From: a virus
Taxonomy: Duplodnaviria; Heunggongvirae; Uroviricota; Caudoviricetes
Virus record (IMG/VR): IMGVR_UViG_2657244931_000004
Coordinates: 1-6,013 of that record
DNA length: 6,013 nt
Direction: 5' to 3' (one strand)
Within the stretch, counting starts at the first letter, position 1. The number at the start of each line of letters is the position of its first letter. This document shows, one piece after another, positions 1-6,013 of the stretch. The notes below the pieces were generated by a model. That model was not told the DNA's origin and made no database searches. It saw only the letters and a program-made list of their open reading frames with translations. The translations under genes were made by a program, and so were the position numbers.

Positions 1-15
1 AAGTGGAGAACGAGC

Positions 16-768
16 ATGAACCTTGAAGCCTTACCAAAATATTACTCCCCAAAATCTCCCAAATTGAGCGATGAGGCACCGGCGACAGGCTCGGGTGGTT
101 TAACGATTACGGATGTGATGGCTGCGCAGGGGATGGTGCAGTCGAAAGCACCGCTTGGATTTGCCTTATTCCTGGCAAAAGTTGGTGTTCAGGATCCTCA
201 GTTTGCGATTGAAGGTCTGCTCAATTACGCGATGGCACTGGATAATCCGACATTGAATAAATTGAGTGAAGAAACCCGGTTACAGATCATCCCTTACCTT
301 GTGAATTTTGCCTTTGCTGATTATTCCAGGTCTGCGGCAAGTAAGGCTCGCTGTGAGCATTGTGCTGGTACTGGATTTCATAATGTATTGCGCGAAGTGG
401 TGAAACACTCCAGAAGCGGGGAATCTGTTATCAAGGAAGAGTGGGTGAAGGAACTATGTCAGCATTGTCATGGTAAGGGAGAAGTCAGCACAGCGTGTAG
501 AGGGTGTAAGGGTAAAGGTATTGTCCTGGATGAAAAAAGGACCCGGCTTCATGGCACGCCTGTTTATAAGATTTGTGGGCGTTGCAATGGAAACCGGTTT
601 AGCCGTTTACCAACCACACTGGCGCGGCATCATGTCCAGAAGCTGGTACCAGACCTGACGGATTATCAGTGGTACAAAGGATATGCAGATGTCATTGATA
701 AACTGGTGACAAAGTGCTGGCAGGAAGAAGCATATGCTGAGGCGCAATTAAGAAAAGTGACGAGATAA
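16..768 (+). CDS. Q: Late-gene antitermination protein Q family (250 aa), with cysteine-rich zinc-finger repeats
   Basis: Complete 250-aa ORF. It sits immediately upstream of a promoter/terminator pair and the lysis cassette, which is the canonical Q position. Residues 113-194 carry three perfect CxxCxGxG motifs (CEHCAGTG, CQHCHGKG, CRGCKGKG) and a fourth partial one (CGRCNGNR). Family assignment rests on synteny and motifs, not a search. Confidence 0.7.
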   Translation: MNLEALPKYYSPKSPKLSDEAPATGSGGLTITDVMAAQGMVQSKAPLGFALFLAKVGVQDPQFAIEGLLNYAMALDNPTLNKLSEETRLQIIPYLVNFAFADYSRSAASKARCEHCAGTGFHNVLREVVKHSRSGESVIKEEWVKELCQHCHGKGEVSTACRGCKGKGIVLDEKRTRLHGTPVYKICGRCNGNRFSRLPTTLARHHVQKLVPDLTDYQWYKGYADVIDKLVTKCWQEEAYAEAQLRKVTR

Positions 769-799
769 ATGATTTTCACCGAAGATAGCGACATGATTC

Positions 800-828
800 T
801 TGCATTTTTCAAAAAATCTGGTTAGGAT
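800..828 (+). promoter_or_regulatory. Candidate Q-dependent late promoter (PR'-like): -35 TTGCAT (800-805), 17-bp spacer, -10 TAGGAT (823-828)
   Basis: Sigma70-like hexamers with 17-bp spacing, 30 nt after the Q stop and about 50 nt upstream of a strong intrinsic terminator, matching the lambda PR'/tR' arrangement. The -10 is a weak match and overlaps a perfect palindrome (821-837). Confidence 0.35.
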
Positions 829-878
829 TTTCCTAACGATGGGCTTTGTATGTCTGCCGTTAACGAAATCATAACAAA

Positions 879-905
879 CCTCGCTTCGGCGGGGTTTTTG
901 CTTTT
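879..905 (+). terminator. Rho-independent terminator (tR'-like): CCUCGC-UUCG-GCGGGG hairpin followed by UUUUUGCUUUU
   Basis: A 6-bp GC-rich stem (one U-G wobble) with a UUCG tetraloop at 879-894, directly followed by a T-rich tract at 895-905. Position downstream of Q and the candidate late promoter fits a terminator that Q antitermination must read through. Confidence 0.65.
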
Positions 906-918
906 CTGGAGGTCAATA

Positions 919-1176
919 ATGCAGGGCGAAAAGCAGCAGCCATATTTTTTTAACCCTGGTATGACTGTTGAACAGCTTGAAGACTGGCTGGAGCAGCAAA
1001 AGCTTCATCTAAGCCGCTATAACCGTCTGGTAAAAGAAAAAGCAGAGCTTGAAGAACGGCTCAGTGATATTTCTGTGGAAATTGAACGAATGTCTGCTGG
1101 TGGTTTTAACGGAAAGTTGAGTTTCCCTTGGGAGTCAAGTTCGCTTCTGAGAAATCATCAACAGGGTAGTATTTGA
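919..1176 (+). CDS. Hypothetical small coiled-coil protein (86 aa) between the late terminator and the holin genes
   Basis: ATG at 919 is preceded by GGAGG (908-912) at 6-nt spacing. The track ORF 850-1176 is in the same frame, but its first 23 codons run through the terminator hairpin, so 919 is the preferred start. The protein is charged and helical (EQLEDWLEQQKLHLSRYNRLVKEKAELEERLSDISVEIERMS); no family recognised. Confidence 0.45.
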   Translation: MQGEKQQPYFFNPGMTVEQLEDWLEQQKLHLSRYNRLVKEKAELEERLSDISVEIERMSAGGFNGKLSFPWESSSLLRNHQQGSI

Positions 1177-1255
1177 CTGAAATAATAAACAGACTGTCAT
1201 TAAGATCCCTTCCCCTCATATCTGAGAGGACCAACAGCAATTAAGAGGGGGCTAA

Positions 1256-1642
1256 ATGTCCGATCCGATTTCCGGTACTGGGCTGGCTGGTGGTGCCCTG
1301 ACGGGTGCCAGTGTTTATGGACTGCTGACCGGAACTGATTACGGCGTTGTATTTGGCGCATTTGCAGGGGCTGTATTCTACATAGCAACAGCAGCAGATC
1401 TGAGTGCATCGCGCCGACTGGCATATTTTATCGTGTCATATATTGCCGGGATTCTTTGCTCTGGGTTGGTTGGCTCCAAGCTGGCGAACTTGACCGGATA
1501 CAGTGATAAACCTCTGGATGCTATTGGTGCCGTAATCGTCTCTGCTTTAGCCGTTAAAATCCTGACGTTCCTGAATAATCAGGATATCGGCTCGCTGGTG
1601 GCGCTCATAACGCGCCGGGGAGGTTCAGGTGGAGCTAAATGA
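1256..1642 (+). CDS. Putative holin or lysis-associated membrane protein (128 aa, 3-4 predicted TM helices, Gly/Ala-rich)
   Basis: RBS GAGGGGG (1245-1251) 4 nt before ATG 1256. Three to four hydrophobic segments and a short basic C-terminus (RRGGSGGAK). It is the first gene of the lysis cassette and overlaps the next gene by 14 nt. Holin versus antiholin cannot be decided from sequence. Confidence 0.55.
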   Translation: MSDPISGTGLAGGALTGASVYGLLTGTDYGVVFGAFAGAVFYIATAADLSASRRLAYFIVSYIAGILCSGLVGSKLANLTGYSDKPLDAIGAVIVSALAVKILTFLNNQDIGSLVALITRRGGSGGAK

Positions 1643-1910
1643 CCCGACAGCAACTATAAATGCGCTGTTATGTGCTTGTGTTGTTATTACTCTGATGTTT
1701 TATCGTCGTGGTGATTCGCGGCATCGTCCTTGGGTTTCACGTTTAGCCTGGCTGATTACTGTTACATACAGTGCTGTTCCGTTGGCCTATCTCTGTGGGA
1801 TTTATCCTCATTCCTCATGGCCCATTATCGTGGCGAACACTATTTTTCTTTCCGTGCTGGTGGCCGTCAGAGGCAACGTTGCACGTCTGGTTGATCATCT
1901 GAGGCACTAA
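1629..1910 (+). CDS. Putative holin (93 aa, 3 predicted TM helices, charged C-terminal tail)
   Basis: GTG start at 1629 preceded by GGGGAGG (1617-1623). Three hydrophobic segments and a basic C-terminus (RGNVARLVDHLRH) give a class-I-holin-like topology. Its stop overlaps the endolysin start (TAATG). The start codon is uncertain. Confidence 0.6.
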   Translation: MELNDPTATINALLCACVVITLMFYRRGDSRHRPWVSRLAWLITVTYSAVPLAYLCGIYPHSSWPIIVANTIFLSVLVAVRGNVARLVDHLRH

Positions 1911-2524
1911 TGAACCAACAATTATTTCAAAAGGCGGCTGGTATTAGCGCCGGGCTGGCTGCGCGCTGGTTTCCGCACATTGATGCGGCGATGAAGGAAT
2001 TCGGCATTACAGCACCAGCGGATCAGGCAATGTTTATCGCTCAGGTAGGCCATGAGTCGATGGGGTTTAGCGCCGTAGTTGAAAATTTTAACTACACACC
2101 ATCTGCGCTTGTGGCGACGTTCGGAAAGAGGATCACACAGCAGCAGGCTGATGTCCTTGGCAGAACATCCGGGCATGCAGCTCGTCAGGATGCTATTGCC
2201 AATCTGGTGTATAGCAACCGACTGGGTAACAAAGCACCAGGTGATGGCTGGAAATATCGTGGTAGAGGATTAATTCAAATCACTGGCCTCCATAATTATC
2301 GCATCTGTGGCGCGGCGCTGAAGTTAGATCTGGTGACTTCACCTGAACAACTGGAACAAGAGCTACAGGCGGCGCGCTCAGCTGCATGGTTCTACACCTC
2401 TAAATGCTGCATGATCTACGGTGCCGATATTAACCGTGTTACGCGCATCATTAACGGCGGTCTGAACGGTATTGAGGATCGTAAGGTCCGATACAACAAG
2501 GCGCGGGCGGCGCTGCTGGTATGA
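1910..2524 (+). CDS. Endolysin, glycoside hydrolase family 19 (chitinase-like lysozyme), 204 aa
   Basis: Contains the conserved AQVGHESMGF motif (catalytic Glu in HES) and YRGRGLIQITGLHNY, as I recall them from GH19-type phage endolysins. There is no hydrophobic N-terminal SAR segment, so export would depend on the holin. Position between holin and Rz is canonical. Confidence 0.85.
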   Translation: MNQQLFQKAAGISAGLAARWFPHIDAAMKEFGITAPADQAMFIAQVGHESMGFSAVVENFNYTPSALVATFGKRITQQQADVLGRTSGHAARQDAIANLVYSNRLGNKAPGDGWKYRGRGLIQITGLHNYRICGAALKLDLVTSPEQLEQELQAARSAAWFYTSKCCMIYGADINRVTRIINGGLNGIEDRKVRYNKARAALLV

Positions 2525-2913
2525 AGATGAGTTATTGGGCGCTCATTTTAACGTTTATTGCTTGTGTCGCTGGTGGTCTTGTCTGGTCAGCGAATCACTA
2601 TCATGGAAAGTTTCTGGAGGAGCAGAAGCGTGCTGACGCTGCGGAACAGCGAGCTGATTCTACTGAGGCTATCACCGCGAATGTTCTGCGTACTATGGCA
2701 ATAACGAACATCATTCAGGAGGCGAATCAACATGCAAAACAGCAGATCGCACTGGAGTCACAGAGAACCCAGGAAGATATCAAAGTGGCTGTTGCGGATG
2801 ATGATTGTGCTTCACGTCCTGTGCCTGCTGCCGCTGCTGACCGGTTGCGGAAGTACGCGAACAGTTTACGTGAGCATTCCGAAGACTCCACTACCAGTCA
2901 GCTTGACTTCTGA
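2521..2913 (+). CDS. Rz-like i-spanin (inner-membrane spanin subunit), 130 aa
   Basis: N-terminal TM segment (YWALILTFIACVAGGLVW) followed by a charged, helical periplasmic domain (EEQKRADAAEQRAD...). The start overlaps the endolysin stop (ATGA). The Rz1 reading frame is embedded in its 3' half. Confidence 0.75.
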   Translation: MKMSYWALILTFIACVAGGLVWSANHYHGKFLEEQKRADAAEQRADSTEAITANVLRTMAITNIIQEANQHAKQQIALESQRTQEDIKVAVADDDCASRPVPAAAADRLRKYANSLREHSEDSTTSQLDF

Positions 2914-3046
2914 TACACCTGTACCGTTTATACCCAACCCACTGACGTATGGTGCAAGTCTTGATTTGAATGTAAGTTTGTTATCCGCGTTGGCTCAATG
3001 TAATAGGGATAAGTCAGATATCAGAATCATTGATAATCAAAATTGA
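2732..3046 (+). CDS. Rz1-like o-spanin (outer-membrane lipoprotein), overlapping architecture; alternative start at 2798
   Basis: Different frame from Rz, beginning inside Rz and running 133 nt past its stop. Lipobox LLTGC after a hydrophobic stretch (MMIVLHVLCLLPLL); proline-rich mature part (PKTPLPVSLTSDTPVPFIPNP) with one Cys (AQCNRDK) in the C-terminal tail. A strong SD AGGAGG (2717-2722) lies 9 nt before ATG 2732; internal ATGs at 2798/2801 would give a conventional-length signal peptide. Confidence 0.65.
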   Translation: MQNSRSHWSHREPRKISKWLLRMMIVLHVLCLLPLLTGCGSTRTVYVSIPKTPLPVSLTSDTPVPFIPNPLTYGASLDLNVSLLSALAQCNRDKSDIRIIDNQN

Positions 3047-3146
3047 TGTATATATCGTCATGTAGATAACGAACAAGGTATTCCTCTGATACGTTTCGTT
3101 GAATACAGGTCATGGGTAGGCATTGCAATATCGCTTCGAAATTATC

Positions 3147-3155
3147 TGTGATAAT
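3147..3155 (+). promoter_or_regulatory. Candidate extended -10 promoter element (TGtGATAAT) for the AT-rich orphan gene
   Basis: TGnGATAAT at 3147-3155 within an AT-rich intergenic stretch, about 90 nt upstream of ATG 3246. No convincing -35 was found. Speculative. Confidence 0.25.
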
Positions 3156-3245
3156 GCTCTTAATTTTGAATGTATGTATTTGGGAAAAGAGATAAAGTAA
3201 TAGTCTAATTAATGGAGATATCCACAAAACACAAAAGGGACTATT

Positions 3246-3752
3246 ATGCGACCAGATCAATTTTTCTATCCAGATACTTTTACCTTTAATTCATCCACCT
3301 ATTATGGTCAACGTGACTCATCTAAAGGTCGATTGTATATTCCTATTGAAAGTGACTTATGTCCATTTAATATCGGCGATATCATTGTGCAAAAAATGGT
3401 CGACAGGGAAAGACTATTTGAAGTGCTTGATTACGAGGTGCAAATTAGTCTCGAGGCTGGTTGCCCTGGCTACTCACATTTGGCGGTATTGATAGTGAGG
3501 GCATTGGATGTAAAAGAGAAGCCGAAGCAGATTACTACCCATTTGACGTTTAACGGTGCTATTAATGCTGGTGGTGATTTTCAAGCCGGTAATGACAATT
3601 CGATCACAAAGAATATAACCATTCAACAACTACATGATGCTATAGAGCATTGCAATGATCCAGAGGTTAAAAGCCTTTGGCAAAAGCTATTGGAAAATCC
3701 GACGTTTGCTTCAATTGCTTCAATATTGGCAAAAAGTGCTTTAGGACAGTAA
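3246..3752 (+). CDS. Hypothetical protein (168 aa), AT-rich orphan cargo gene (moron) between lysis and packaging genes
   Basis: Clean 168-aa ORF with AAAAGGGA upstream of the ATG and an intrinsic terminator directly downstream. Base composition is visibly more AT-rich than the flanking phage genes (by eye, not computed). No signal peptide or TM segment; Ser/Thr/Tyr-rich N-terminus (TFTFNSSTYYGQRDSSKG). No family recognised. Confidence 0.6.
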   Translation: MRPDQFFYPDTFTFNSSTYYGQRDSSKGRLYIPIESDLCPFNIGDIIVQKMVDRERLFEVLDYEVQISLEAGCPGYSHLAVLIVRALDVKEKPKQITTHLTFNGAINAGGDFQAGNDNSITKNITIQQLHDAIEHCNDPEVKSLWQKLLENPTFASIASILAKSALGQ

Positions 3753-3761
3753 TTCATCAAG

Positions 3762-3783
3762 CCCCATTCAATATGGGGTTTTT
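3762..3783 (+). terminator. Rho-independent terminator: CCCCAU-UCAAU-AUGGGG hairpin followed by UUUUU
   Basis: Perfect 6-bp stem (3762-3767 / 3773-3778), 5-nt loop and a T5 run (3779-3783), 10 nt after the stop of the 168-aa ORF. Confidence 0.6.
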
Positions 3784-3809
3784 ATGCTTATTGCAAAGAG
3801 TTTTCTTCA

Positions 3810-4160
3810 ATGCCACCACGAACCCCAAAAGCCTGCCGTGTTCGCGGGTGCCGCCATACCACCACTGACCCGTCAGGTTATTGCGAAAGCCACAAAAGCG
3901 AAGGCTGGAAGCAATACAAGCCAGGACAATCCCGTCATCAGCGCGGCTACGGTTCGAAGTGGGACGTTATCCGCGCGCGTGTGCTGAAACGTGACAAAGG
4001 TTTATGTCAGTTATGTCTGCGTGCCGGTGTGGTGCGTGAAGCGAAAACCGTTGACCACATCATCCCTAAAGCGCATGGCGGTACTGATGCCGACTGTAAT
4101 CTGCAGAGTCTGTGCTGGCCGTGTCATAAGGCGAAGACGGCCCGTGAACGGTTGAAGTGA
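3810..4160 (+). CDS. HNH endonuclease (116 aa), phage packaging-associated type
   Basis: HNH signature DHIIPKAHGG ... N ... CWPCH with paired CxxC motifs (CQLC, CWPC), plus an N-terminal Cys/His cluster (CRVRGCRH...CESH). It lies immediately upstream of the terminase small subunit, as in HK97-like phages. Confidence 0.85.
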   Translation: MPPRTPKACRVRGCRHTTTDPSGYCESHKSEGWKQYKPGQSRHQRGYGSKWDVIRARVLKRDKGLCQLCLRAGVVREAKTVDHIIPKAHGGTDADCNLQSLCWPCHKAKTARERLK

Positions 4161-4186
4161 TAATAATTCTCAACTTCCTGAGGGGA

Positions 4187-4246
4187 GGGGCGGGTCAAAT
4201 CCCTGCGGCCTGACGTCTTCCGGACTGCCCGCCCCATCGTTTTTTT
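4187..4246 (+). other. GC-rich imperfect inverted repeat (GGGGCGGG ... CCCGCCCC) followed by a T7 run; candidate cos region and/or terminator between HNH and terS
   Basis: GGGGCGGG (4187-4194) pairs with CCCGCCCC (4228-4235) around a loop of about 33 nt containing a GACGTC palindrome; T-run at 4240-4246. In HK97-type phages cos lies between the HNH gene and terS. The exact cohesive-end site cannot be identified from sequence. Confidence 0.35.
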
Positions 4247-4285
4247 ATACCCGCGAAAAATGAAATTTAACCAGGAGTGCCGCAT

Positions 4286-4780
4286 ATGGCTGGAACGGCG
4301 GGGCGTTCCGGGCGTCGCCCCAAGCCAACGGCGCGCAAGGCGCTGGCCGGAAACCCCGGCAAGCGAGCCCTGAATAAAGATGAACCTGTTTTTACGCCCA
4401 TCAAAGGTGTTGAGCCACCGGAGTGGTTCGCAGAAGAAAATCTCCCTCTCGCCACGATCATGTGGCAACTGACAACCAAAGAACTCTGCGGTCAGGGCCT
4501 GTTGTGCGTGACTGACCTCGCGGTGCTTGAGCGGTGGTGCGTGGCCTATGAGTTCTGGCGACGTGCCGTGAAAAATATTGCCATACAGGGCAACACCATC
4601 ACCGGTGCAATGGGCGGCAGGGTCAAAAATCCGGAGCTGACCGCCAAAAAAGAACAGGAGTCCGAGATGAGCAGCACGGGGGCAATGCTCGGACTCGACC
4701 CCAGCAGCCGCCAGCGTCTGATTGGCCTGGCGGGGCAGAAGAAAGCCACTAACCCGTTTCTGAAAATCATCGAGTCATGA
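4286..4780 (+). CDS. terS: Terminase small subunit, P27 family (alternative GTG start at 4277)
   Basis: N-terminal motif [21 protein letters not shown] contains the GNPGKR signature I associate with P27-family small terminases. AGGAG (4273-4277) lies 8 nt upstream of ATG 4286. The stop overlaps the terL start (ATGA). Confidence 0.85.
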
Positions 4781-6013
4781 GCCGGAAATCTTACCCCAAC
4801 GTAAATGCTGCCAATCAGTATGCCCGTGATGTTGTGCGCGGAAAGATTGTGGCCTGCCAGTTTGTGATTCAGGCCTGCCAGCGCCATCTTGATGACCTGA
4901 TGGCGGAAAAAAGTAAGTCGTTTCGTTACCGCTTCGACAAGGACCTGGCTGAACGGGCCGCCAAATTTATTCAGCTGTTGCCGCATACCAAGGGTGAGTG
5001 GGCATTCAAACGGATGCCCATCACGCTGGAGCCGTGGCAGCTCTTTGTGATCTGCTGTGCGTTTGGCTGGGTCAATAAAGGTACCCGGCTGCGCCGCTTC
5101 CGGGAGGTGTATACCGAAATCCCCCGTAAGAACGGCAAATCGGCAATCTCTGCCGGTGTCGCCCTGTATTGTTTTGCCTGTGATAACGAGTTTGGCGCGG
5201 AAGTGTATTCCGGTGCCACGACAGAGAAACAGGCGTGGGAAGTCTTTCGCCCGGCGCGACTGATGTGTAAACGCACACCCATGCTGACGGAAGCGTTCGG
5301 GATTGAGGTTAACGCCTCAAACATGAACCGTCCGGAGGATGGTGCGCGGTTTGAACCGCTGATCGGTAACCCCGGTGATGGTTCATCACCCCACTGTGCC
5401 GTGGTGGATGAATATCACGAGCACGCCACAGATGCGCTTTACACCACGATGCTTACCGGGATGGGGGCGCGACGTCAGCCACTGATGTGGGCTATCACTA
5501 CCGCCGGGTACAACATTGAGGGGCCGTGCTACGACAAACGGCGGGAAGTCATCGAGATGCTCAACGGCTCGGTGCCTAACGATGAACTGTTCGGGATCAT
5601 CTATACCGTTGATGAAGGTGACGACTGGACCGACCCGCAGGTGTTGGAAAAAGCCAATCCAAATATTGGCGTGTCGGTTTATCGCGAATTTTTGTTAAGT
5701 CAGCAGCAGCGTGCGAAAAATAACGCCCGTCTGGCAAACGTCTTTAAAACAAAACACCTCAATATCTGGGTGTCGGCGCGTTCGGCGTATTTCAACCTGG
5801 TGAGCTGGCAGAGCTGCGAGGATAAATCACTGACCCTTGAGCAGTTCGAGGGGCAGCCGTGCATTCTGGCCTTTGACCTGGCGCGTAAGCTGGATATGAA
5901 CAGCATGGCGCGACTTTATACCCGCGAGATTGACGGTAAAACGCATTACTACAGTGTGGCCCCGCGTTTCTGGGTACCGTATGACACGGTGTACAGCGTC
6001 GAGAAAAATGAAG
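4777..6013 (+). CDS. terL: Terminase large subunit (ATPase/nuclease), 5' partial; continues beyond window end
   Basis: Open frame from ATG 4777 to the window end (412 codons, no stop), so it is absent from the complete-ORF track. Walker A-like EIPRKNGKS, Walker B-like VVDEYHE, directly downstream of terS. The short ORFs listed in this span are in other frames. Confidence 0.9.

Follow-up and report, generated by a model that had tools for sequence, protein, structure and literature searches.

A small gene between the late terminator and the holin genes of an Escherichia coli lambdoid prophage and its relation to a convergent gene cassette

In Shiga toxin (Stx) phages, for example 933W, the stxAB genes are Q-dependent cargo located behind the late promoter pR' and the terminator tR'. 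A similar place is taken by a small plus-strand open reading frame (ORF), 919–1176, in the 6,013-nucleotide stretch of DNA analyzed here (positions 1–6,013 of the IMG/VR record IMGVR_UViG_2657244931_000004; hereafter, the window); the window corresponds to the region of late control and lysis in an E. coli lambdoid prophage. As in the stx arrangement, the ORF follows a Q gene, a pR'-type promoter, and a terminator and precedes the holin genes, and the content of the slot varies between prophages. Unlike stxAB, it encodes a soluble helical protein of ~10 kDa without a toxin or virulence domain, and its relatives are paired with an antisense gene and have other cargo upstream. Comparison of the loci indicates that the window ORF is the orphaned half of a convergent cassette, still intact and constrained, whose second half has decayed in this prophage.

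Another described type of accessory gene is the moron of lambdoid phages (the Hendrix/Juhala concept), exemplified by the “ant moron” (PMC2629481). Like a moron, the small ORF belongs to a discrete mosaic unit (from ~876/913 to ~1205) whose presence varies while its neighbours are conserved, and this unit appears dispensable for lysis or assembly. Classical morons are equipped with a promoter and a terminator of their own; the window ORF has neither such a promoter nor such a downstream terminator, and only the lost partner looks autonomously transcribed, with its own terminator.

Convergent or antisense control modules of temperate phages include P22 ant/sar, lambda cII/oop, and the pR/pL region of coliphage 186. 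In the cassette, as in these modules, face-to-face units overlap at their 3' ends, and the lytic unit runs antisense through the other one. Unlike them, both units of the cassette encode conserved proteins of unassigned function, the terminator of one unit sits in the coding sequence of the other, and interference between the units is only proposed. The BstA/aba system of the Salmonella prophage BTP1 combines a defence gene with a built-in self-immunity element, which is DNA. The logic proposed below for the cassette, in which a lysogen-expressed gene would be linked to an element sparing its own lytic cycle, resembles that of BstA/aba purely by analogy: neither cassette protein shows a defence domain or a PADLOC match, and the element of BTP1 is DNA and not a protein.

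Both halves of the cassette are represented in catalogues by entries without function. The small ORF is a full-length member of the phrog_3501 family, and a relic at 1106–1205 derives from a gene of the NF033230/phrog_5286 family. Annotations mostly give one member of the pair, and no record of phrog_3501 and NF033230 as an overlapping pair was found. As far as could be found, the convergent pair with an embedded terminator appears to be previously undescribed.

The small ORF and its convergent partner

The small ORF starts with ATG at 919, ends with TGA at 1174–1176, and encodes 85 aa plus a stop codon; the preliminary description, made from the window alone, gave the same coordinates and a length of 86 aa, which is one too many. 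The GGAGG Shine–Dalgarno sequence that it mentioned is located at 908–912 (plus strand), 2 nt past the T-tract of the late terminator and 6 nt ahead of ATG 919, and a purine-rich site is kept at this position in relatives of the ORF. The window contains 58 ORFs of at least 30 aa, and ORFs of the size of 919–1176 are not significant by themselves; therefore, the reality of this ORF was judged on comparative evidence.

No family had been recognised for the product in the preliminary description; nevertheless, the ORF matches phrog_3501, the family of the Sb50 protein of the Salmonella phage ST64B, over positions 1–84 of the 85 profile positions (E 1.3e-54), i.e., over its full length and within the length range of the family (~81–93 aa). 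A search of 5.8 billion proteins revealed homologues in 59 protein clusters, found in Enterobacteriaceae only and nearly all 81–93 aa long. When 1.84 billion representatives were searched exhaustively with a profile, only 32 matches were obtained (representatives at 50% identity). The few longer matches are upstream mis-extensions, and no credibly longer homologue was found among these representatives; thus, the ORF is not a piece of a larger protein. It is annotated as hypothetical in phage SKA5, in the Salmonella phages 118970_sal3 and ST64B (Sb50), and in five Klebsiella phages. Further relatives were found through IMG/VR and exact-protein look-ups; a pattern scan of genome contigs gave 133 pattern matches, none of which was confirmed. 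A literature search for “Sb50” returned only a primer table and false matches to strain names, and no papers were found for “phrog_3501”.

The median pairwise ratio of nonsynonymous to synonymous substitution rates (dN/dS) of the ORF was 0.16 (codons 6–71; 203 pairs with dS > 0.15), and the codons of its most conserved motif, PYFFNPG, carry synonymous changes between relatives. Decay from a known gene, which would have spoken against the gene according to the preliminary description, does not apply to the ORF itself and does apply to its cassette. Taken together, these comparisons indicate that ORF 919–1176 is a genuine protein-coding prophage gene.

An in-frame extension from ATG 850 is present in the window and would give 108 aa. 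Homologues share the Met encoded by ATG 919, with those of Klebsiella starting four codons later; their N-termini read MQxxKQQPYFF throughout or, in Klebsiella, MQQPYFF. The phrog_3501 profile begins at the residue encoded by ATG 919, and in four loci (L056, L063, L068, and L070) the upstream frame is shut by stop codons 12–48 nt before the start. All of this agrees with the earlier choice of ATG 919 as the start codon.

Gene calls around distant homologues revealed a repeated opposite-strand gene of ~148 aa that overlaps the 3' end of the small ORF. A systematic tblastn survey placed this partner gene in ST64B and in every locus of the Klebsiella, Citrobacter, and Enterobacter types, and loci of Photorhabdus, Erwinia, and Serratia were subsequently added. 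The partner belongs to the NCBIfam family NF033230, “ECs1072 family phage-associated protein” (145–175 bits vs. a cut-off of 70), and to phrog_5286. It is 145–157 aa long, and its overlap with the small ORF comprises ~70–110 nt, i.e., the last ~25–35 codons. Comparison of the partner with Pfam, PADLOC, and PDB gave no match, and a profile search found only proteins described as “hypothetical” or “ECs1072 family”, from Enterobacterales only. A convergent small ORF was present in 80/80 partner-bearing IMG/VR loci. Among the GenBank phage records, the ORF occurs in eleven, ten of which also contain the partner, and every record with the partner has the ORF. These data show that the small ORF and the NF033230 gene form a conserved mobile convergent cassette in nearly all lineages other than that of the window.

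The pairing was apparently unnoticed because annotation pipelines systematically halve the overlapping pair. The records of ST64B and two Klebsiella phages that were checked in GenBank list the small ORF and omit the partner, which is encoded on the minus strand at 3188–3622 in the ST64B locus (L001) and at 3161–3634 in L002 and L004. The PGAP annotation of E. coli TUM1881 (L095) lists the partner and omits the small ORF (about 4106–4342, plus strand).

The cassette begins with a plus-strand terminator or a lytic promoter, followed by the small ORF, the opposite-strand partner, and, usually, a second plus-strand terminator; in full modules the latter commonly stands before the holin gene (e.g., 3707–3726 in L001). 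The small ORF reads along the phage lytic operon. The window ORF, being the first after pR'/tR', has this orientation, as do those of L092, L177, L179, L180, and L182. A conserved element, TTGATATTGTTGATTCGCC(AAAA), is located ~45 nt upstream of the partner ATG (L001 3645–3663, minus strand; positions 36897–36915 of the record), and its equivalents were found in L054, L063, L072, L091, and L002. This element possibly serves the partner as a promoter or as a site for a regulator. Reuse of TTGATATTGTTGATTCGCC as an operator-like site was ruled out, as it occurs once in the ST64B genome.

The pair is kept in at least three genomic contexts and across Enterobacterales at 25–40% identity. In a Serratia locus (L177) and in L092 it adjoins a CI-like repressor gene, away from Q, and the small ORF scores 44 bits (L177) and 93 bits (L092) with the family profile. 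In both, the small ORF reads with the neighbouring phage genes and the partner converges on it. A promoter-like site (TTGACA, 16 nt, CATAAT, score 11/12) precedes the ORF in L092, the corresponding site of L177 being weaker, and a minus-strand terminator-like site lies within the small ORF of L092. In the Sp4 prophage of E. coli O157 Sakai (L176, 19361–19816), the ECs1072 gene (now ECs_5703), the namesake of the partner family, is located antisense between cII-like and O-like genes. This is the early-right operon and not the Q slot; lambdoid genomes, therefore, carry the cassette at several positions. The plus-strand frame facing ECs1072 in Sp4 shows a weak likeness to the small ORF (8–10 bits), which is only a hint. 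A literature search for “ECs1072” found only one microarray table, in which the gene was detectable in uninduced cultures of O157 Sakai.

In every full module, a minus-strand GC-rich hairpin followed by UUUUUCUUUU is located ~45 nt past the partner stop codon and falls in codons 39–48 of the small ORF (KEKAALEERL). The stems differ between loci by compensatory changes, for example, AGCCGUUC/GGGCGGCU, AGCUGCUC/GAGUAGCU, and AGCCGC/GCGGCU, and a stable hairpin with a U-tract was found in six diverse loci (L001, L002, L054, L060, L088, and L090). These features point to the hairpin as the transcription terminator of the partner. Because it lies inside the ORF, the partner mRNA would be antisense to about the 3'-terminal half of the ORF mRNA, and the near-invariant KEKAALEERL motif would be doubly constrained. 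Such a constraint from an RNA hairpin of the opposite strand calls for caution in interpreting motif conservation in small phage genes.

In the window, both the partner and its terminator are present as relics. Stepwise decay is seen in the alignment of the window with the 118970_sal3-type Salmonella locus, ST64B, and L054. In the sal3 type and in the window, everything beyond about 1205 has been lost, and the holin module replaces the N-terminal ~88 codons of the partner; in the window only, compared with the sal3 type, a further 66-nt deletion follows directly after the stop codon of the ORF. The partner relic (1106–1205, minus strand) lacks the N-terminal ~88 codons and retains ~34, namely, the last ~24 over the 3' end of the ORF and ~10 more beyond the deletion. 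The minus-strand ORF 1106–1240 ends with “...LNDSLFIISVKYYPVDDFSEANLTPKGNSTFR” vs. “...LNDSLFIISDRLK...HYPVDDFSEADWDPKENSVFL” in intact partners, and the relic gives no match to NF033230. The terminator relic (1032–1062, minus strand) lies inside codons 38–48 of the small ORF. The template of the U-tract is kept there, and the stem was destroyed by the change of GCC GCC CTT GAG to GCA GAG CTT GAA (four substitutions, resulting in A43E). The minimum free energy at this site was −10.6 kcal/mol (z −0.45), and a terminator hairpin like that of full cassettes was not detected.

Despite the loss of the partner, 47/51 copies of the window-type ORF are intact; the other 4/51 are frameshifted, and some also contain stop codons. 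For codons 1–62 of the ORF in the partner-less clade, the ratio of nonsynonymous to synonymous polymorphism (pN/pS) was 0.26, based on 4 changes of each kind, which is similar to the values of 0.29 for the ORF and 0.24 for the partner in the partner-retaining Klebsiella clade. An excess of nonsynonymous changes in the overlapped tail of the ORF was seen in both clades.

The late control region and the variable slot

The gene of the late antiterminator Q (16–768, plus strand, 250 aa) was identified by its similarity to PF03589 (E 1e-53) and phrog_127 (E 9e-109), and its product matches the lambda Q structures 7UBM (E 9e-38) and 4MO1 from PDB. Compared with lambda Q, the window protein contains an extra CXXCXGXG segment of the DnaJ zinc-finger type at approximately residues 109–193; the similarity of this segment to PF00684 (E 3e-7) is under the gathering score.

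A pR'-like late promoter was read from the sequence at 800–828 (plus strand), with the −35 hexamer TTGCAT at 800–805, a 17-nt spacer, and the −10 hexamer TAGGAT at 823–828; it was not flagged by a simple consensus scan. Its geometry is exactly that of lambda: the lambda pR' consists of TTGACT, 17 nt, TAAATT, and 6 nt followed by AACGATGGG, and that of the window of TTGCAT, 17 nt, TAGGAT, and 6 nt followed by the same AACGATGGG. The lambda pR' transcript begins with exactly this sequence, which lies at 835–843 (plus strand) in the window and which contains, in lambda, a −10-like element responsible for the sigma-70-dependent pause at which Q loads. In the window, transcription from the late promoter would start at ~835. 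A perfect 7-bp inverted repeat, GTTAGGA AAA TCCTAAC (821–837), overlaps the −10 hexamer of the promoter; the scan reported this repeat solely as a minus-strand terminator-like site.

An intrinsic tR'-like terminator is located at 876–905 (plus strand). It consists of a 9-bp stem, AAACCTCGC/GCGGGGTTT, with the loop TTCG (876–897), followed by TTGCTTTT, the T-tract extending to about 905. Relatives keep a hairpin of differing stem and loop together with the conserved T-tract, behind different promoters and Q genes. The leader RNA between the promoter and the terminator would be ~70 nt long (~835–905) and, if the promoter acts like lambda pR', would be made constitutively. Its position is comparable to that of lambda 6S RNA and of the StxS small RNA of Stx phages. 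An Rfam scan of 700–1400, including the leader, found nothing near the gathering score.

Only 13 nt separate the T-tract from ATG 919, which leaves no room for a promoter of the ORF itself. Judging from this arrangement, ORF 919–1176 is the first one behind a tR'-type terminator and can be transcribed only via terminator read-through. Given the lambda-type Q, the pR' geometry, the terminator, and the lack of promoter room, the Q-dependent expression of the ORF assumed in the preliminary description is a sound inference, and the small protein is probably first made when the late genes switch on.

Thus placed between the late terminator (876–905) and the first holin gene, which starts at 1256, the ORF has the location reported for it earlier: the lambda-type Q gene, pR' with the pause element, and the terminator lie upstream, and the lysis cassette downstream. 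Variation of the slot among related prophages, which had been suggested as a check, is directly seen in three loci. L085 has the same Q and terminator, and 913–1209 of the window is swapped there for 1.1 kb with a gene of a 213-aa hypothetical protein. L086 diverges past 861 and contains a hypothetical 80-aa gene and a lambda-type lysis cassette. In L087, a different gene in the Q position is followed by a 198-aa gene and the same holins, with similarity starting at 1210. Near-identical prophages without the small ORF exist. The window is 100% identical over 760–1260 to strain APEC E19025 and 98.6% identical to phage SKA5, and its arrangement occurs in about 101/5426 complete E. coli genomes.

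Other cargo may be inserted between Q and the small ORF. In L060 it is a STAND-type NTPase gene (2674–3882; PF20703, PDC-S59); in L088 (663–3889) the insert encodes an ABC-type ATPase (PDC-M29A/AriA match), a PDC-M29B-like protein, and a 392-aa unknown protein. Because relatives have such inserts, the ORF is not simply “the cargo”; of the earlier interpretation as a gene in the Q-to-holin cargo slot, the position and the variability hold, and the picture of free-standing cargo like stx does not. In the Klebsiella loci L068, L070, L073, and L080, a tRNA-Thr(UGU) gene (about 3855–3940) is located directly upstream of the ORF and replaces the hairpin, a terminator-like site being found further upstream. 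This tRNA gene recalls those preceding stx in Stx phages.

The small ORF co-occurs with at least three types of genes in the Q position (PF03589, PF06530, and the unclassified Sb49), with four holin families (Phage_holin_8/3_7, 3_1, 3_3, and 2_1), and with at least three endolysin types (GH19, GH108, and T4-type lysozymes). Such diversity disfavours a holin-specific role. Considered by itself, the window ORF has modest significance, being a conserved hypothetical late gene of a slot already known to vary. More generally, the tR'-to-holin slot of prophages with lambda-type Q is directly shown to swap small genes, and relatives take defence-like cargo.

The small protein and its possible role

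The conserved motifs of the small protein are PYFFNPG (residues 8–14), EDWL (21–24), N35, KEKAxLEERL (39–48), and SFPW (68–71). All of them are present in the window protein, with A43E in KEKAALEERL as the only departure; this substitution is specific to the partner-less clade. According to the AlphaFold2 model, residues 17–60 form a single long helix (pLDDT > 90), as anticipated in the preliminary description, and the ends are predicted less confidently; a richer alignment gave no better model of the termini. The predicted helix is amphipathic, with hydrophobic residues at 9/12 of the a/d heptad positions. The protein, earlier called highly charged, is only moderately so (13 acidic and 10 basic residues, pI 5.3). 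It is soluble and acidic, with a mass of ~10 kDa, and no membrane segment was found (the maximum Kyte–Doolittle value in a 19-residue window was 0.2).

The profile and structure searches that had been recommended assigned the protein to its PHROG family and found no other relative. Pfam, NCBIfam, and PADLOC gave nothing above threshold, the sole match being crAss001_48 (E 0.06). The profile search of PDB sequences returned just designed or generic coiled coils (E ≥ 0.003), and Foldseek found no match with E < 3 in PDB and BFVD, as expected for one lone helix. The sequences QQPYFF and KLSFPW loosely resemble beta-clamp-binding motifs; the leading Gln is not conserved in distant homologues, and no claim is made here.

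A run of seven T residues (945–951, plus strand; codons 9–11) is a recurrent frameshift site of the family. Seven residues were counted in 154 copies, six in 4, and eight in 2, across two clades; the ORF copies of L050–L053 are disrupted at this run, which was also noted in L131 and L157. The cluster P0001 (67 members) has FLTTGM in place of FFNPGM of the family, which looks like a compensated double frameshift. The variation of the run could be due to a mutational hotspot, on/off variation, or sequencing error. Programmed frameshifting at this site was rejected: a TAA codon follows immediately in the −1 frame, and only 4 codons precede a stop in the +1 frame.

The explanation that we consider most likely, tentatively and with a probability of roughly 45%, is that the small protein is a binding protein of the coiled-coil type, by which the activity of the partner would be neutralised or replaced in lytic growth, and that the orphan would act on a related or host target. 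The two genes of the cassette would be used in opposite phases, the partner in the lysogen and the small ORF in lytic growth. The prophage would probably express the partner in the orientation opposite to that of the silent lytic operon. Lytic transcription, by Q-modified polymerase here and from a pL-like promoter elsewhere, would then cross the partner antisense and yield the small protein. The latter would most likely be a dimeric coiled coil, and its conserved aromatic/proline ends (PYFFNPG and SFPW-PSP) might bind and neutralise a protein target. This target would be the partner protein where it is present; for orphans, it could be a partner homologue of another prophage or the same host target. 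In the prophage studied, the product would be a Q-dependent, non-essential late accessory protein, a component of neither lysis nor assembly.

Several observations weigh against this proposal. The contact between the small protein and the partner is hypothetical, and the expression of either gene in this type of phage is predicted from sequence. Neither protein showed similarity to defence, toxin–antitoxin, or anti-defence families. A convincing sigma-70 promoter was not found for the partner, TTGATATTGTTGATTCGCC having no good −10 hexamer. The co-occurrence of the two genes is partly forced, as the partner stop codon and terminator lie physically inside the ORF. In addition, the ORF is under purifying selection where the partner is lacking, and the selection statistics of the orphan clade come from small counts (11 nonsynonymous and 5 synonymous changes). 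Finally, among the Klebsiella-type loci (67–70), three distinct stop codons and two T-run indels occur in the ORF while the partner is intact. Because each gene persists intact where the other is lost or disrupted, neither is indispensable to the other in the lysogen, and a classical toxin–antitoxin relationship is thereby excluded. A type II toxin–antitoxin pair was likewise rejected, as the genes are convergent, each is intact without the other, and neither has a Pfam or PADLOC match.

Independence of this kind would fit the main rival explanation, which is possible, though somewhat unlikely. According to it, the small protein is an autonomous late accessory protein that works independently of the partner in late lytic growth, its target being a host component conserved in enterobacteria, a competing phage, or a defence system; the two genes would be neighbours merely because they share a mobile cassette and because the 3' end and terminator of the partner overlap the ORF. 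A large clade without the partner (the E. coli genomes counted above and phage SKA5) keeps the ORF intact and constrained, the partner tolerates its loss, and its presence is independent of the Q family, holin family, and packaging module. However, only one partner-less clade was seen, and hitch-hiking alone is hard to credit for a pair kept in at least three contexts and at such low identity. The convergent overlap could also be read with the opposite polarity: the small protein would be mildly harmful, acting in host shutoff or killing, and would be silenced in the lysogen by the RNA and/or protein of the partner, as in a type I-like toxin–antitoxin system. About 140 nt of the partner RNA would be complementary to the ORF mRNA, the upstream terminator (876–905) additionally insulates the ORF, and ORF knock-outs recur, both at the T run and by nonsense mutation. 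We consider this improbable, because many prophages of E. coli and Salmonella that lack the partner carry the ORF stably, its product has no membrane segment or toxin-like domain, and purifying selection is similar on both genes.

The loss of the partner and of its terminator would also agree with the window ORF being a functionless leftover of a broken cassette, not yet decayed and not meaningfully expressed. The frameshifted copies, the nonsynonymous changes at near-invariant residues (G14C, N35S, and W71R), and an overall pN/pS of 0.56 could be interpreted in this way; yet most copies are intact, the pN/pS of codons 1–62 is as low as in partner-keeping clades, the nonsynonymous excess in the tail is also observed where the partner is intact, and the Shine–Dalgarno sequence and start codon are retained, which makes a leftover very unlikely. 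Hardly any more probable, and if anything slightly less so, is a regulator of lysis timing, i.e., a cytoplasmic antiholin or a modulator of holin or endolysin made just before the lysis cassette. In Q-slot loci the ORF is always upstream of the lysis cassette and encodes the first late product. Nevertheless, it is not a part of the lysis system: it stands beside four holin families and at least three endolysin types, its product has no transmembrane segment and cannot be tied to a single holin family, and near-identical prophages with the same holins are without it; moreover, it also occurs in immunity-region contexts distant from lysis genes.

The suggested neutralisation of the partner by the small protein may be taken further, and with considerable doubt, to the cassette as an undescribed lysogeny/lysis toggle of Enterobacterales prophages, in which the partner would be an exclusion or abortive-infection effector expressed in the lysogen and the small protein its lytic-phase neutraliser. 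If this is true, synthesis of the small protein would precede that of all other lytic-operon products, mutually exclusive expression would be enforced by convergent transcription and the embedded terminator, and orphans would be stand-alone anti-exclusion genes against partner homologues of other resident prophages. With a small protein encoded first in the lytic operon, an antisense partner, and the partner terminator within the coding sequence of the small gene, the cassette is a testable candidate for a switch that would hand a lysogen-phase function over to a lytic-phase one.

Other features of the window

Downstream of Q and the small ORF, the window contains two holin-family genes, a GH19 endolysin gene, Rz/Rz1, a low-GC accessory gene, an HNH endonuclease gene, and the genes of the small and then the large terminase. 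No terminator-like site was found in 1177–1255. The start of the holin module (1206–1255, plus strand) is a recurrent recombination junction, and likeness to other holin-8 prophages begins at 1210. The first holin-family gene (1256–1642, plus strand) belongs to Phage_holin_8 (PF16931, E 1e-34) and the second (1629–1910, plus strand) to PF05449. They are followed by the gene of the GH19 endolysin (1910–2524, plus strand) and then by the spanin genes. A candidate o-spanin gene (Rz1/LysC-like, 2732–3046) with the lipobox LLTGC is located in the +1 frame of Rz; it extends 133 nt beyond the Rz stop codon and, thus, overlaps Rz and is not embedded in it.

The GC content drops to 0.32–0.39, vs. ~0.5 in the flanks, in a second accessory unit between Rz1 and the HNH gene (3000–3800). 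This unit comprises a 168-aa ORF (3246–3752) of the phrog_5789 family, which has no function assigned, and a terminator-like hairpin at 3759–3781. Pfam, NCBIfam, and PADLOC searches gave no match for this ORF. In related prophages, the site corresponding to 3246–3752 is occupied by a gene of a GrlR-family regulator or by a 321-nt ORF.

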